Assembly: GCA_963711565.1 (NCBI GenBank) | Contig: CAVQEQ010000003.1 | Location: 768,001-832,000, forward strand | Length of the DNA: 64,000 nt | DNA from: an uncultured delta proteobacterium | GTDB taxonomy: Bacteria; Desulfobacterota; Binatia; Binatales; Binataceae | Direction: 5' to 3' | Part shown: in pieces, positions 50,598-59,559 of the stretch | Numbering within the stretch: the first letter of the stretch is position 1 | How the letters are laid out: the number at the start of each line of letters is the position of its first letter | The notes under the pieces: generated by a model | Databases searched by the model: none | Told to the model about the DNA's origin: nothing | The model's input: only the letters and a program-made list of their open reading frames with translations | Program-made: the position numbers and the translations under genes

Positions 50598-51560
50598 CTA
50601 ACCGCGCATCCGCTCTCTCGGGCCTAGAAATCGATCGCCGTTGTAGTGGATCAGATGTTCTGGGAGATCAGCGATCCAGACCTCAGTGTCCCAAGCGATC
50701 GTGTTGGTATGGCGGCGAAATTCGGTCATGTCCGGGAATGCCGAAACGTAGATCAATCCAGCGGGACAGTTGGCCAGCATCAATTCGAGCTCAAGCACCC
50801 GTTTGCTAGACATCGGCCCATGCGACGTTACGGCCTCGACCAGGAAGAGCCAGTTCCGCTTTTTGTCGTAAATGATCACGTCCGGAAGCTTGTCATGCTC
50901 AGTTATAGGAATGCCGAGCGTCTTCAACATCTGACTATCGACATGGAGGTTCTTCTTCGCCGTATCGCCGAGATACAAGAGTCTGGGGTCTTCGGCGAAG
51001 CGCGTTGCAAATTGTTCAACAATGGCTTTCTGTAGCTCGTTATGCGACCCCGGCGAGAGGTTGACCACTCCTCCATCTGGAAACCGGACTGGAATCAAAC
51101 GTTTTGAACGGCGTCTCTGATAGATCTCGATCAGCGAGGTGCGACCGGACAAAAATTTCGCGAGCGCTGGCTGCCACTGGGACGTTCCGAAGGTCTTGAT
51201 AGCGTTCAGCGCGGCTTCAGATACTGCATAGTGGGAATGGGGACTGTTGGTTGCTAGGTTTGGCTCGAAAGGATTGTGTTCTGCGACTCCCGCGAGAACG
51301 AATTGATGTAAGACTTGGCGGCGTATTGTTTCTCTTGTGTTCGCCGCATACGCGACTCGGTATTTCTTTTCTCGGACGAAGTCCATGATGCCCTTGGTGC
51401 CAGAGCGACGATCACGGCTGGCCTTCGACCAGGCATCATTGACTGCTATTCCGCAGAGGGCCAAAAGCGTAAGGGCAGAAATCTGATTTTGCTGCGATCC
51501 GGGGAGCCCGAACGCTTTTAGAATTGCCTGAGCTTGTGCGATCTTTTCTGACTTTTTCAC
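50598..51560 (-). CDS. Type II restriction endonuclease, BsuBI/PstI family
   Basis: YAANTRETIRRQVLHQF, LSPGSHNEL, YLGDT, HDKLPDV, LVEAVTSHGP, IAWDTEVW, HYNGDRFLGP. Confidence 0.92.
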   Translation of the reverse strand: MKKSEKIAQAQAILKAFGLPGSQQNQISALTLLALCGIAVNDAWSKASRDRRSGTKGIMDFVREKKYRVAYAANTRETIRRQVLHQFVLAGVAEHNPFEPNLATNSPHSHYAVSEAALNAIKTFGTSQWQPALAKFLSGRTSLIEIYQRRRSKRLIPVRFPDGGVVNLSPGSHNELQKAIVEQFATRFAEDPRLLYLGDTAKKNLHVDSQMLKTLGIPITEHDKLPDVIIYDKKRNWLFLVEAVTSHGPMSSKRVLELELMLANCPAGLIYVSAFPDMTEFRRHTNTIAWDTEVWIADLPEHLIHYNGDRFLGPRERMRG

Positions 51561-53128
51561 CGCGCAGTGCCAATAGCCTCCTTGACGATATCGTCCAGGC
51601 TTTCGCCGCCGCTCTGCTTCCTCACGCGTTGTCCGATGAAGACGATCATATCGCGAGGCGGTAGAGGCATCGCGCGCAACTCCGTTGCGCTCACCTGTGT
51701 ATTGCCACTTGATACTCTGAAGTAGGTGTCGAGCAACTCGCTATTGAGAAGCGCGGCCAGCCCCAAAGCTTCGTTCTCGTTCATTTCGTCACGCATCGAA
51801 TATATGTAGTTCAAGTGATTCTCGATCCCGAGCAGTGACCCGGGAACAGAGCCTTTCAGCCAAGGCGCAGCAACTAATCGCCGCGCTTCTTCTTTCGCGC
51901 TGAAGCGTCGGATCAAAACGTAGTTGCGGTTGGGTAGTAGCAGAGATTTTTCGGTCGCGACTGTGCTGATGTATTGAGGTTTGCGCGTCTCAATTGGGAA
52001 GGTTACCTGCATCGCCAGGACGTGGTTCATCCAGATGAGAGGGGCATAGTCGTTCGATGGAACACCAATCTTGTCGATATACTCAGTTGCTCGAAAAGGA
52101 ACGACCGGTCCCGTCGAGATATTCATCTCGTACTGGTGGAGAGAGCCGGTCCACGAATCGACGAGGCGAAGCGCCGCGTCCTCACCCGGCAGAATCGGAA
52201 GGCGGAAGATTTTAGAGCTGCTAGCCATGTCCAGCGCGTCTCTAAGCGGAAGCGATCGGCGATTAAGATGAGCGAGGTCCGCGATACCGGCACTGCCAGT
52301 TATCTCCAGCTCGAAACCTTCGCGACTATGTTGCCATCCGTCGTCCCTGACACCTCTCAGAATAATGCTCTCCTGGAGAACCTCGTCTCGTCCGAAGGCT
52401 TCGCGGCGCGAGCCAAAGACGTGAACCCCCACAGGGCGGATGTTAGCGAAGAACTTTTCTCGAAAGAGCCGGAAGTATGGACCTGATGCGAAACTGCGAG
52501 GTGTTATGAACAGGAACTCTCCCCCCTTTCGTAAGAGGGCCGCGGTCGCCGCCATGAAGAGTGCATAAATGTTCGGCTGTCCATGAACGACGACCATCGC
52601 AGCCTGAGCCCGGGGATCGTCTTTAGAAATCTTGAAGTACGGCGGATTCGCGATAACTAGATCGAAGCACTCCCTCGATTGCGTATCAAACAAGTGACCG
52701 TTGGATCTGAAGCTTCCAGCGTGGGCCAACACGAAGTCCTGCTTTTCGATCCTGACACTCACTTCAACTTGATGCTCTTCGGCCCAGCGCTTGAGACGGT
52801 CCAGGACAGAAGCGAGAGCTTCTTGTAGATCCGGATCTGTCTCGTATGCGGTTAGTTCCACTTTACGCACCCGTGGTTCGGCTATTGCCAAACCCTCAAC
52901 AATCGCGCAGAGAAGAGTGCCGGATCCTGCGGCGGGATCCAGAATTCGGATCTCCGACGCGCTGGTATTTGCTTGCCCGGCAATGAAGTCGGCCACTTCG
53001 ACAGGTGTGAGGTACAGCCCGCCAGCTTTACGCTCGGCGGGAGTTTTGCGCGCTACGATCCCTGCGCCAAGACGGTCCGCAAACCGGCTGGGAAGACTCT
53101 CCCAACTGTGACGCTTATACGAAGCCAC
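51557..53128 (-). CDS. N6-adenine DNA methyltransferase (BsuBI/PstI, Eco57I-like domain)
   Basis: ILDPAAGSG motif I, NPPY motif IV, TGPVVPFR, ENHLN, GNTQVSATEL. Confidence 0.92.
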   Translation of the reverse strand: MASYKRHSWESLPSRFADRLGAGIVARKTPAERKAGGLYLTPVEVADFIAGQANTSASEIRILDPAAGSGTLLCAIVEGLAIAEPRVRKVELTAYETDPDLQEALASVLDRLKRWAEEHQVEVSVRIEKQDFVLAHAGSFRSNGHLFDTQSRECFDLVIANPPYFKISKDDPRAQAAMVVVHGQPNIYALFMAATAALLRKGGEFLFITPRSFASGPYFRLFREKFFANIRPVGVHVFGSRREAFGRDEVLQESIILRGVRDDGWQHSREGFELEITGSAGIADLAHLNRRSLPLRDALDMASSSKIFRLPILPGEDAALRLVDSWTGSLHQYEMNISTGPVVPFRATEYIDKIGVPSNDYAPLIWMNHVLAMQVTFPIETRKPQYISTVATEKSLLLPNRNYVLIRRFSAKEEARRLVAAPWLKGSVPGSLLGIENHLNYIYSMRDEMNENEALGLAALLNSELLDTYFRVSSGNTQVSATELRAMPLPPRDMIVFIGQRVRKQSGGESLDDIVKEAIGTAR

Positions 53129-56255: not shown

Positions 56256-56341
56256 GCCGAGGTGGCGGAATGGCAGACGCAGAGGACTCAAAATCCTCCG
56301 TGGGCAACCACGTGCGGGTTCAAGTCCCGCCCTCGGCACCA
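56256..56341 (+). tRNA. tRNA-Leu(CAA)
   Basis: GCCGAGG/CCTCGGC acceptor stem, GAGGA-CTCAAAA-TCCTC anticodon arm, long variable arm, GTTCAAGTC T-loop, encoded CCA. Confidence 0.96.
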
Positions 56342-56440
56342 ACTTCCGTCAGGCGACTTCTAGGCGACTACTAACCGTTGATTCCTGGCAGCCCTTGCCG
56401 GATGCGGATCTTGTATGAGCTTGACGGTCAGCCCGCACGC

Positions 56441-57166
56441 TTAGCCGACGACAGCAAAAGGAAAATACGGTTCTCCGCTCCTACCGCTATCGATCTGCGG
56501 ATTTTGAGCATAGGCCGTACGTTGCCTTACTACGCTGCGCGCTTTCTCATGAGCAGCCATAATAGACATGACTTGGAGAGCGTTGGGACCCTGAGCTTTC
56601 GCCCAATCAGAACCAGCCGTCATAAGGTGATTCGAATAGTAACCCCCGGTCGAGCTACTTCCGGCAGCTTCTTCGCCAGGACTGCATGCATACGCCTTGA
56701 TAGCAAGTTTAGTGCACCGCTCGATTTCCACGTCGTACATTACCCTACATAGTACGCCATTACGGTTCACGGCCGCTTTGGCTAGAGATTTTAGTAGCAC
56801 ATCTTCTGAGATTTCTGGTGTTCTTTCGACTCTGCAACAGTCAAGAATGATCGTCTGTTTTTTCCCGGTACGCAGGCTGTCCGAATCCAACGTCCCATCT
56901 TCCAGACCTATAAAGGTATCGCGATTAACTTGATCGCCGTGGCCGGCAAACACCACAAGAGAGTAATCTGCACCTTTAAGACGTTGGACGGCGTTCAGAA
57001 CGTCTGCCGTGTCCGGCCGTATCAGTCGTTCGATCTCTTCCGAGTACCAAAACCCTCCATGCTCATGCATCAAGAATGCACAATATTCACGGACGTCGAT
57101 CCGAACGCCGGTTCTGTCTGGCTCATCTTTGCCCGGATGCCCAATTATAAGAGCGCGTCGTTCCAT
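56441..57166 (-). CDS. Caspase-like protease (peptidase C14)
   Basis: RRALIIG first strand, FAGHG catalytic His, ILDCCR catalytic Cys, ACSPGEEA, GGYYS, QNP. Confidence 0.85.
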   Translation of the reverse strand: MERRALIIGHPGKDEPDRTGVRIDVREYCAFLMHEHGGFWYSEEIERLIRPDTADVLNAVQRLKGADYSLVVFAGHGDQVNRDTFIGLEDGTLDSDSLRTGKKQTIILDCCRVERTPEISEDVLLKSLAKAAVNRNGVLCRVMYDVEIERCTKLAIKAYACSPGEEAAGSSSTGGYYSNHLMTAGSDWAKAQGPNALQVMSIMAAHEKARSVVRQRTAYAQNPQIDSGRSGEPYFPFAVVG

Positions 57167-57184
57167 TCTGTTTTTAATCCTCGG

Positions 57185-57838
57185 CTAGCCTTCAGGGTGT
57201 AACGTCATCTCGTCTCGCAGAAATTCCTCAAGGCGTTCGCCACTAGGTTCGATCGCCGCCCGCGTCTTCCCTTCTTCCCTAGCTTCGCGTTCATAAAACT
57301 CATTGGCGACCCACTCGAATTCAGTGAACGATTGCGGCACATTTCCCTCGCGCTGACGATCGCGTTCGCGGAAAACATACTCCTTGCAGGCCGTCCACCA
57401 GCGAGACGCATGAAAGCCAAACGTGTTCCAAGCTAGCTCCTTGTGAATCAAACCGAGCCGATATAGAATCGCGAATGATTCAAAGAAGTCCATCACCGAC
57501 TCGGTGATCTCGTCGTGATTAGCCTTATCTAAAATCTTGCGTGCTAGGACAGCTCGATGCTTTTCCATCCGCTCGCCATCCCACTTCTCTTCAACCATCA
57601 TGTGCAGTCTGACTGCGAGGTCCGCTCTGAGATCATCTGACTGCTGCCGCATTGCGGTTCGCACATCGCCTGAATGACGTTCTAGTGCCGTCTGCGCGTC
57701 TTGCGCCTGCTGGCTTATGGCAGACTTCGTCGCATTAACTAAAGAACGAGTTAACCGATACAAGCCGAAGGTAGCCCCAGCAAGGACCCAAGTCCCGATT
57801 GCAACCCAGTCGAGTTTACATGCAGATTCGAAATTCAC
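57185..57838 (-). CDS. Single-TM membrane protein with coiled linker and DUF4760-like domain
   Basis: N-terminal TM (WVAIGTWVLAGATFGL); VMDFFESFAILYRLGLI and FTEFEWVA patterns. Confidence 0.7.
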   Translation of the reverse strand: MNFESACKLDWVAIGTWVLAGATFGLYRLTRSLVNATKSAISQQAQDAQTALERHSGDVRTAMRQQSDDLRADLAVRLHMMVEEKWDGERMEKHRAVLARKILDKANHDEITESVMDFFESFAILYRLGLIHKELAWNTFGFHASRWWTACKEYVFRERDRQREGNVPQSFTEFEWVANEFYEREAREEGKTRAAIEPSGERLEEFLRDEMTLHPEG

Positions 57839-57851
57839 CCCTGCTTCCTAT

Positions 57852-58091
57852 CTACGAAACGTCTGTGACTGTCAGGAACACACTGCAGTGATTTTCCCAA
57901 TAGGTGAGGTAGCGCGAGAGCACCATGTATTTATTGGTCTGCCCCACGGCGCCGCCGACATTCTTGCAGTCAACAATATCGCCTACGTTCGGAAGAGGAA
58001 GCGACTGGCCAGCCGCGATTTCCACGGGTTCGTGTATGTCGGGAGATCCCTTCGCTCTGTACTTGACAAAGACGTGGGTATTATCAGTCAT
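57852..58091 (-). CDS. Small hypothetical beta-rich protein
   Basis: Fills the gap in a tightly packed operon; LPLPNVGDIV...Y.V.SR pattern. Alternative ATG at 58109. Confidence 0.65.
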   Translation of the reverse strand: MTDNTHVFVKYRAKGSPDIHEPVEIAAGQSLPLPNVGDIVDCKNVGGAVGQTNKYMVLSRYLTYWENHCSVFLTVTDVS

Positions 58092-58109
58092 AGATTCACC
58101 GCTGCCCAT

Positions 58110-58436
58110 CTAATCAGCGAGCCGTGTAAGCACCGCTCGAAAAGTAACTCCAGGCACCTCGGTTGCAGTCCCCATCAACTGCGCGGAATCGCCCTGCGAT
58201 GAGCCGGTAAGGGTGATGTTGACTCGGTCTATGCCAAATACCGAAGTCATAAAAGAAGTATTCGTATGGAGATCCACTTTCACACGGGCAGTGACTTGTC
58301 CGCTGCTCTCGTTGAAAGTGCCGACGTAGTAGGTGCGCGAGTCACCACCCCTCACCTTGCCGTCTTGGATTGCCAAGACTCCGACTCCCGACCCTCGTGG
58401 CGTCGAGAAAGCAACTTTATATAGCCCATCTCTCAT
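58110..58436 (-). CDS. GrlR-like beta-barrel protein
   Basis: MRDGLYKVAFSTPRGSGVGV...GKVRGGDS..YYVG pattern; GGAGG RBS. Confidence 0.75.
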   Translation of the reverse strand: MRDGLYKVAFSTPRGSGVGVLAIQDGKVRGGDSRTYYVGTFNESSGQVTARVKVDLHTNTSFMTSVFGIDRVNITLTGSSQGDSAQLMGTATEVPGVTFRAVLTRLAD

Positions 58437-58569
58437 CGGCCCTAACCTCCTGCTTTTTCAAATTCTAGCGGATGAGTTCACGGCAATCGAGACAGCGGAC
58501 CAACACGTTGTCAACGGTTGTCAAGCGATTGCCGACCCCGGCGCAGCGCAGGTTTAGCAGGAGTGCATT

Positions 58570-59559
58570 TCACATTAGCCCTTGCCGGATGCGGGCGGAA
58601 AAATCGGGAGAGTCGCCGGCGGCTTTTGCTTTTTCTGTGATGTTGCTCCGCGACCGCAGCTCCGCGAAGGGGATGCTTGTGTCGATCTGGCCGCGCTCAT
58701 AAAGCAGTTCGTCGAGATGTCCGTTTGCCAGCAGCCGCCAGTCGAGACTGCCGCCGGCGCCGATGTTTTGCGCGTGGCCTCGAATCGCCGTCGTACAGTT
58801 CTGCGTCAATGCGTTGTACCACTCCGGATGATCGGCGAGCTGATTCACTTCGTTCAGGTAATCAACCAGCAGCGCGCGCGCCTGCGCGGGAGTAGCGCTG
58901 ATGCGATACAAATAGACCTGCTCACCGCGGTAGTTGGCTCGCAGCCCGACCAGGTCGCGTTCATCGGCGACCACATAGTACAGCTCGTACTGGCGGAAGA
59001 AACCGCGGATCGCGGAATATGATTCGCCCTTCTCCTTGCGCGTCTCAATCGAGATCGCAAGATGCTGACCGTTGTCGAAATCCCAACTGACGATCGTGTG
59101 CGCGATCTCAGTCGGCCCCCAAAACGAGATAAACAGGTCAACGCCTTTGATCCGATCGAGGTCGCAGCTCCGCGTCTCCCAGCGCTGGTCGTAGTCGGAT
59201 TCGGATCGATATTTGAAATTTCGAACGTTCTCGATCGTAACGCGGCTGCCGTCAAAAGTTACGCGCGCTGTGCGGGACACATCGGGCGTCCAGTCGCGCG
59301 CATTGCTCGGCGGAATCAACGTCCACCAAAGCGCGACGACAATCACCGGAAATAACGCGACCACGAGTCCTCGTAGCAGCGGGCGAACGATAGCCGCCAA
59401 AATGATGCTGACGATCGCCAATCCGGCCGCCATCGGCGCCGCCAGCATGCGCGAATGCGGCCCGTCGAACCAGATCGCCATGACGCCCCATGCGACTGCG
59501 GCAACGACGATCACCAACATCACGATCGTCGCGACGATGCGAACTGCGCGCCGGATCAT
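58570..59559 (-). CDS. DUF4105 (Lnb N-terminal-like) membrane-anchored protein
   Basis: PSNARDW, NVRNF.Y, AHTIVS, SIETRKE, YNALTQNCTT. Confidence 0.88.
   Translation of the reverse strand: MIRRAVRIVATIVMLVIVVAAVAWGVMAIWFDGPHSRMLAAPMAAGLAIVSIILAAIVRPLLRGLVVALFPVIVVALWWTLIPPSNARDWTPDVSRTARVTFDGSRVTIENVRNFKYRSESDYDQRWETRSCDLDRIKGVDLFISFWGPTEIAHTIVSWDFDNGQHLAISIETRKEKGESYSAIRGFFRQYELYYVVADERDLVGLRANYRGEQVYLYRISATPAQARALLVDYLNEVNQLADHPEWYNALTQNCTTAIRGHAQNIGAGGSLDWRLLANGHLDELLYERGQIDTSIPFAELRSRSNITEKAKAAGDSPDFSARIRQGLM

Follow-up and report, generated by a model that had tools for sequence, protein, structure and literature searches.

The subject of this report is a small cassette of genes at the 3' end of a DUF4105 gene, next to a leucine tRNA gene, in an uncultured soil bacterium of the Binataceae (assembly GCA_963711565.1, contig CAVQEQ010000003.1, positions 768,001 to 832,000 of the forward strand; these 64,000 nucleotides are called the window, and plain positions count from its first letter). 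An exact 18-bp direct repeat brackets the cassette, and we propose that this repeat is the overlap of two versions of one gene end and not an attachment (att) site. The end of a related strain's gene, together with the cargo behind it, would have been captured by homology and its other end joined illegitimately, and this would have happened in two rounds. We give this reading a probability of about 0.6. Stranded gene ends stand on both sides of the cassette, cassette-free alleles exist, the same pattern recurs across the genome and is stacked at the rng gene, and the genome holds genes for DNA uptake and end joining.

A repeat search confirmed the exact 18-mer that an earlier, sequence-only reading of this DNA had described, and the reading frames and stops at both copies were as it had given them. 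The copies (Table 1) are separated by 2169 bp, and a search of the 4.84-Mb genome at zero or one mismatch returned no third copy. On the minus strand, the right copy lies inside the intact gene and reads SARIRQGL-M*, with its stop at 58570-58572; the left copy reads RIRQGL-PGING*, with its stop at 56371-56373, 29 bp from the end of tRNA-Leu(CAA) at 56341. The gene belongs to the Pfam family Lnb_N (PF13387), which we take to be the family formerly named DUF4105. The guanine-plus-cytosine (GC) content is 52.5% in the insert against 61.9% across the window. No inverted repeat bounds the insert, and Pfam finds no integrase or transposase among its open reading frames (ORFs), both as the first reading had said. 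An exact 18-mer pair appeared in 3 of 300 simulated 8-kb stretches (about 1%), and the genome has 49 isolated 18-nt pairs spaced within 30 kb; the present pair stands above chance because it combines an in-frame tail of native type with a position at both GC edges. Misassembly, the ground on which the earlier claim could have fallen, is excluded, since both repeats lie on a single 3379-bp contig of sequencing run X1, and run X3, from a different study, has a contig across the right junctions with zero differences. X1 differs from the window at 22 places and may be the source sample. All four runs examined for alleles and joins (X1 to X4, of 22 listed) give other letters at 57752-57753, where the window letters are possibly in error.

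The insert had been taken to be wholly cassette DNA that arrived as one free piece. This is not supported: its right 57 bp (58520-58576) are the orphan end of another chromosomal gene. The first 38 bp match the end of a membrane gene of about 765 codons, spermidine-synthase-like by Pfam PF01564, with 85-87% DNA identity in congeners G045 and G014 and 79% in G009, and the trailer behind them supplies the Met codon and the stop of the current DUF4105 end. The gene itself has no copy in the source genome and was found in 13 of the 46 congeners. The cassette is bracketed by two outward-pointing stranded gene ends, of 37 and 38 bp. The right end also exists without the cassette in a close strain: a 3166-bp contig of run X4 matches 58520-59164 with 10 differences in 645 positions and then departs from the window, and a join of equal depth connects the tRNA end to 58520. 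About 2450 bases of this contig remain, near the 2298 bp of the 765-aa gene, which points to an allele with the order tRNA, whole spermidine-synthase-like gene and DUF4105 ending GLM*, lacking both the cassette and the left orphan. Thus, the GLM* end is likely an older, pre-existing allele. All three of X1, X2 and X3 carry the cassette, but in 58924-59546 the first two depart from the window at many positions of DUF4105 and X3 does not; such strains show many differences in DUF4105 and few in the flanks, as homologous exchange would give, and the exchange of alleles is likely ongoing.

The sequence-only reading had also suggested that the cassette could still be excisable, an idea that finds no support here. 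Neither the excision join (56407 to 58595) nor a circle join was present among the contigs of the four runs; contigs drop rare variants, so their absence shows only that excision is not common. A join of the tRNA to 58580 in run X3 was considered as an excision and rejected, because it skips the spacer and the tail too and thus represents the allele of another lineage.

The DUF4105 gene is present in 32 of the 46 congeners, and its end was read in 31 of them (all but G023). The residue after GL is Pro in 27 of the 31 and Met in none, and the tails include PGISS*, PGISG*, PGMSG* and PEIPGS*; PGING* is therefore of the native type, as an original C-terminus should be. It was rightly held that the insertion target is this protein-coding gene and not the tRNA, which is not duplicated here. 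A single-copy DUF4105 end lies 32-38 bp from a whole tRNA-Leu in four of the 31 (G043, G045, G059 and G061), and one metagenome locus (L234) carries the exact 18-mer once, adjoining a whole tRNA-Leu. The predicted empty site is thus seen at the level of the genus, and the exact empty allele of the source strain is not among the alleles seen. A downstream duplicate of the DUF4105 end occurs in none of the 31 (over scanned lengths of 1.3-75 kb, several of them short), thus the gene does not serve as an att site that is used again and again. The same count led us to reject the short DUF4105 tails of some congeners as a sign of a hot spot, and some of these tails come from a nonsense change in the native one. 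Among 118 metagenome loci with the 18-mer, three are DUF4105 ends, none with cassette genes, and the other 115 are unrelated. The tRNA-Leu(CAA) gene is a separate integrase target, with partial 3' copies in G001, G013, G049, G007, G048 and G006 and tyrosine integrases beside those in G049 and G013. In these last two genomes, islands lie between the tRNA and DUF4105 with their tyrosine integrases (L055 and L051), one with a TrwC relaxase.

We propose the following course of events. DNA of a related strain, consisting of a gene end and the genes behind it, would recombine with the resident gene by homology, and its free end would be joined without a dedicated recombinase. In the first round, the four-gene cassette would have joined an X4-type allele behind its spermidine-synthase-like gene, stranding the last 38 bp of that gene. 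In the second round, a fragment with the order DUF4105 end (GLM*), stranded tail and cassette, broken 33 bp past the caspase stop, would have met a recipient whose DUF4105 gene ended in PGING* beside tRNA-Leu, and the last 37 bp of the recipient gene would have been stranded in turn. The intact DUF4105 gene is the likely anchor of the recombination. For the free end there are two possibilities: the fragment may close into a circle that enters by a single crossover, or strand invasion may occur with the displaced resident end retained. The ligating activity would likely be Ku/LigD. The genome has ComEC, DprA and adjacent Ku and LigD genes, and we infer that these act here, just as we infer the donor strain, the two rounds and the route of DNA entry. 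Homology-directed capture gives the best fit, and two rounds account for every piece at the site without extra deletions. In E. coli, 56 of 60 clones obtained with a linear donor that had one homologous arm carried partial duplications of variable length (109-950 bp); the donor had been trimmed, ligated and taken in by one crossover, a route ten times as frequent as the deleting one (PMC3240628). The earlier idea that the cassette integrated without a recombinase of its own survives in part: none is needed, and a circle with short homology is one of the two likely routes, but a recombinase acting in trans has left no sign.

The pattern is not confined to this locus. Like cases first surfaced in a search for low-GC inserts between repeats. 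A genome scan with our own gene caller (3810 genes, last 75 bp of each, two-sided paralog filter) found a piece of these 75 bp repeated downstream in 24 genes, 15 of them across DNA of less than 58% GC. Ten controls using upstream, 5' and internal pieces gave 2-11 cases in total and 0-4 with low GC, several being the same sites seen from the neighbouring gene; mirror cases at 5' ends amounted to three low-GC matches, one of which is a 3' site viewed from the gene next to it. The repeats at like sites are 18-139 bp long (31-139 bp in 12 of the 15) and have no common sequence. No integrase, resolvase or transposase family was found by Pfam in 77 of the 103 ORFs from 20 like regions, which cover 13 of the 15 sites, C1:1209066 being left out; the cargo includes a XamI restriction pair and HNH, RAMA, MqsA-type, HigB-type, CAP and HEAT proteins. 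Over 17 sites, mismatches between the copies fall 18, 12 and 46 times on codon positions 1, 2 and 3. This third-position excess (46/76) has p = 1e-6 against a uniform distribution and p = 0.003 against an expectation of 44%, our rough estimate for decay combined with further change in the intact copy, and it likely exceeds what decay alone would give.

Individual sites are varied. The end of a luciferase-like monooxygenase gene is present in two exact 19-bp copies that flank a XamI-type restriction-modification pair (C3:1099544-1102433, L329). Repeats of 44-139 bp from gene ends are found at C1:111604, C1:477338, C1:1022966, C3:96136, C4:760185, C4:930643, C4:1016960 and C4:1627968; the cargo of these eight sites is small and low in GC (CAP protein, DUF1902, RAMA domain, DinB, HNH), and the orphan at the last one is about 180 bp from a tRNA-Ser. 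At C3:311952-313940 (L332), about 75 bp of rnhB, near its end but not at it, are repeated behind an MqsA-type antitoxin pair.

An order of arrival is seen at rng (C3:1027552-1032800, L321; L395-L399), whose 3' end takes different cargo in six genomes. The gene was matched in 43 of 47 genomes and a second partial copy in five; the sixth case, G060, has an orphan of about 51 bp behind the same cargo as the source genome. Orphan lengths in the six are 140, 113 + 35, 96, 82, 67 and about 51 bp, and all end at the stop. G020 has two stacked orphans, in the order rng, GmrSD cargo, orphan, Gp49/HTH pair, orphan, and G048 has rng, the same toxin-antitoxin-like Gp49/HTH pair and an orphan. The first orphan of G020 and the 2.2 kb behind it align at 84% with G048 from its intact rng end onwards; thus, the older gene end is the orphan, and the cassette that arrived last lies nearest to the gene. 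At an M28 peptidase gene (C3:727793-730424, L328), an exact 19-bp end repeat encloses 2.6 kb of three-gene cargo with a HEAT-repeat protein, and the orphan tail ETRR* is the native form, which adjoins nuoD in 14 of 28 congeners (30 rows minus G000 and G023). G049 and the source genome share this cargo, the new tail and the orphan at 82% identity, thus such sites persist across species-level divergence; G007 has its own 26-bp end repeat at the M28 gene. A broader proposal, that much of the small defence-type cargo of this soil lineage (caspase, restriction, toxin-antitoxin, HNH, GmrSD) comes in by Ku/LigD closure of taken-up fragments and crossover into gene ends, which would build integron-like, time-ordered arrays without an integrase, is tentative, and we hold it to be possible but not probable.

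Several points weigh against homology-directed capture. The scan thresholds were chosen after examples had been seen, with our own gene caller; about three of the 15 sites may reflect chance or paralogy, and three of the 15 were compared with congeners. The spermidine-synthase-like gene is next to DUF4105 in no congener, its presence as a whole in the X4 contig is read from length and junction position, and the tie between the X4 join and that contig comes from their same depth and place. In G041, an orphan DUF4105 end, PERRGS*, forms a fusion with a truncated ParB-like ORF; it belongs to a phage remnant (L094:1480-1545; C22:127657-127720) and lies 30 kb upstream of the intact gene, which is the wrong side for our model. 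The rng orphans are slightly further from their nearest relatives than the intact ends in five of six tested, and decay of a native duplicate would give the same; in a test for a homologous anchor among congeners, the last 300 bp of rng show only a weak dip. A length of about 30 bp is quoted for RecA-dependent recombination (PMC2884548); the repeat is shorter at 18 bp, so entry by a simple circle crossover would have to be followed by trimming or rely on other annealing, unless a longer anchor acted and the displaced end was retained. Classical homology-facilitated illegitimate recombination usually deletes and does not duplicate.

Among other explanations, a true target duplication would mean that a foreign segment went in while a break was being repaired and that 18 bp of the resident gene were copied in the process. 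The spermidine-synthase-like gene would have come first, the cassette would later have replaced its body, and the X4 lineage would have lost the left orphan; the 3' bias would reflect selection for insertions that spare the gene. Here and at two 19-bp sites the two copies show no difference, as this explanation leads one to expect, the rng orphans look decayed, and the M28 site shared with G049 at 82% means that sites last long enough to diverge. Insertions of restriction systems have been interpreted in this way too, and there the repeats frequently cover a start or stop codon (PMC2853133). What makes it unlikely in our judgement is that it calls for one more loss, a precise one, in X4 and for a replacement whose boundary falls at the repeat, that it predicts the 5'-end mirror cases, of which the controls gave next to none, and that the third-position excess lies above the rough 44% expectation. 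Chance or an assembly error is practically negligible: simulated stretches do carry such pairs at times, but the in-frame native tail, the coincidence with both GC edges, the contigs from two studies and the genome-wide excess all speak against it.

Exact repeats of 18-19 bp at gene ends resemble att cores, and a circle could have been integrated in trans by an enzyme of the tyrosine or serine integrase type that is encoded elsewhere in the genome or has been lost since. The search for tyrosine recombinases that the first reading called for gave nine matches, with one resolvase besides, and a relative of the GrlR-like gene adjoins an integrase in G049. The tandem GTTGTCAA at 58508-58525 resembles an arm site; it was dropped as one, half of it being coding sequence of the second orphan. 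Further, the genome has no other copy of the core and no large serine recombinase, only one look-alike with three mismatches lies near any recombinase, the rebuilt joins have no inverted arms of more than 4 bp, the 31 congeners show no downstream duplicate of the DUF4105 end, and the three DUF4105 ends among the metagenome loci carry no cassette genes. The repeat length runs from 35 to 140 bp at one gene, rng. Varying lengths at one gene, no common core, no arms and no nearby enzyme argue against site-specific recombination, which we consider very improbable here. Just as improbable is that the site is what remains of a tRNA-Leu island that had taken the spacer and the gene tail into its attachment arm and later lost its integrase and right-hand tRNA copy, by a deletion reaching to the GL codons. 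The tRNA is an integrase target in congeners, and in G001 a 58-bp remnant of a tRNA stands 30 bp from the tail; however, the insert holds no tRNA remnant or integrase trace, this is the only one of 30 tRNA loci read with a captured tail followed by foreign DNA, and the many like sites far from tRNAs and the X4 allele would be left unexplained.

The cassette itself consists of four co-oriented ORFs (Table 1). In the caspase-like protease, His76 and Cys110 are invariant across nine aligned relatives; its PADLOC and NCBIfam matches are weak and all under the cut-off. Its relatives were found at 29 loci in genome contigs and in one of 150 family genomes, in no case together with the rest of the cassette, and were absent from the viral contigs searched. 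The 108-aa ORF has Atlas features at 0.98 to GrlR-named clusters, a recognition under the reliable level of the tool, and matches G049 at 83% DNA identity, adjoining an integrase and a terminase. There (L114:9249-15131), relatives of the GrlR-like and DUF4760 genes stand together next to the tyrosine integrase and the terminase; thus, such cargo also travels on phage-like elements. A promoter scan stayed at chance level. A 22-bp match of the left end of the cassette at C4:946183 was set aside as chance, since it falls inside a large coding gene. Elsewhere in the window, a low-GC BsuBI/PstI-type restriction-modification pair occupies 50598-53128, 3 kb from the tRNA.

Table 1. Features at the DUF4105 locus, in window positions
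Feature	Position	Strand	Basis or remark
tRNA-Leu(CAA)	56256..56341	+	ARAGORN; neighbour, itself unduplicated here
Orphan 3' end of the Lnb_N/DUF4105 gene, 37 bp (18-bp repeat and PGING* tail)	56371..56407	-	likely the end of the resident allele
Left copy of the 18-bp direct repeat	56390..56407	+	repeat search
Caspase-like protease, 241 aa	56441..57166	-	Pfam PF00656, E 1.6e-17
DUF4760 protein, 217 aa	57185..57838	-	Pfam PF15956, E 5.3e-9
85-aa ORF, no family	57852..58109	-	79% DNA match in G042
GrlR-like protein (lead only), 108 aa	58110..58436	-	no Pfam match
Second orphan, last 38 bp (QAIADPGAAQV*) of the ~765-aa spermidine-synthase-like membrane gene	58520..58557	+	DNA match
Trailer of the spermidine-synthase-like gene	58558..58576	+	resembles the G009 trailer; in the X4 contig without the cassette
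Intact Lnb_N/DUF4105 gene, 329 aa, end RIRQGLM*	58570..59559	-	Pfam PF13387, E 6e-43
Right copy of the 18-bp direct repeat, within the intact gene	58577..58594	+	repeat search

These cases bear on how defence genes without mobility genes reach new chromosomal sites. A recombinase-free route of gene gain is already known, though little studied; new here are its genome-wide frequency, the 3' polarity, the ordered stacking and the non-restriction cargo. In a literature that was covered only in small part for subscription journals, no paper was found that counts such sites across a genome or deals with them in Binatota. With about 15 natural cases in one genome, showing 3' polarity, arrival order and candidate enzymes, the mechanism becomes testable. 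Stranded gene ends provide a simple marker to find and order integrase-free cargo, including the candidate defence block with the caspase. At the same time, annotation should be cautious, as a repeat of 18-19 bp at a gene end is not necessarily an att site.

Among known systems, a DDE transposon would bring a transposase, terminal inverted repeats and a short, fixed target duplication, none of which is present. Integrase islands at the 3' ends of tRNA or protein genes share the short direct repeat at a gene end and the low-GC cargo; they differ in having an integrase at the element end, a fixed crossover point and a reused core with inverted arms, whereas no core is common to our sites. Homology-facilitated illegitimate recombination usually deletes resident DNA at the join, and here this DNA is retained and duplicated. 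The recircularisation of trimmed donors in E. coli (PMC3240628) is alike in its donor with homology at one end and its variable partial duplication of a gene end around foreign DNA; it is a laboratory plasmid system with longer repeats, and E. coli has no Ku, as the control in our Ku search showed, whereas this genome has Ku and LigD.

The insertions with long target duplications described in PMC2853133 are, in the part of that paper available to us, found mostly in competent species and given no demonstrated mechanism. The cassette agrees with that class in having no other mobile-element genes, in being shorter than 20 kb and in the one-copy empty site of relatives, here at genus level; it departs from it in the duplication, which at 18 bp is below the cut-offs of 30 bp and, in the second screen, 20 bp, and in its genes, a caspase, DUF4760 and two unassigned ORFs in place of restriction or modification genes. 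Agreeing with the class in three of its five tested features and departing from it in two, the cassette works like this class and is not a member of it by those criteria. More generally, our sites share with it cargo without mobility genes, repeats that are unique in the genome and variable in length, repeats at stop codons so that the gene survives, and empty sites in relatives. They are distinct in that most carry non-restriction genes, in the number of sites in one genome, the 3' polarity and the ordered stacking, and in evidence that points to two alleles rather than a copied target. Finally, the 3' displacement arrays of type VI secretion system (T6SS) and Rhs genes (PMC5361080) combine one homologous anchor with one illegitimate join, as we propose here. 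Our anchors are housekeeping or accessory genes with no relation to one another, each keeping its end nearly unchanged, and the cargo is unrelated to them; yet in both, old 3' ends are pushed downstream and the newest module lies by the anchor, which makes these arrays the closest known parallel in stacking order.

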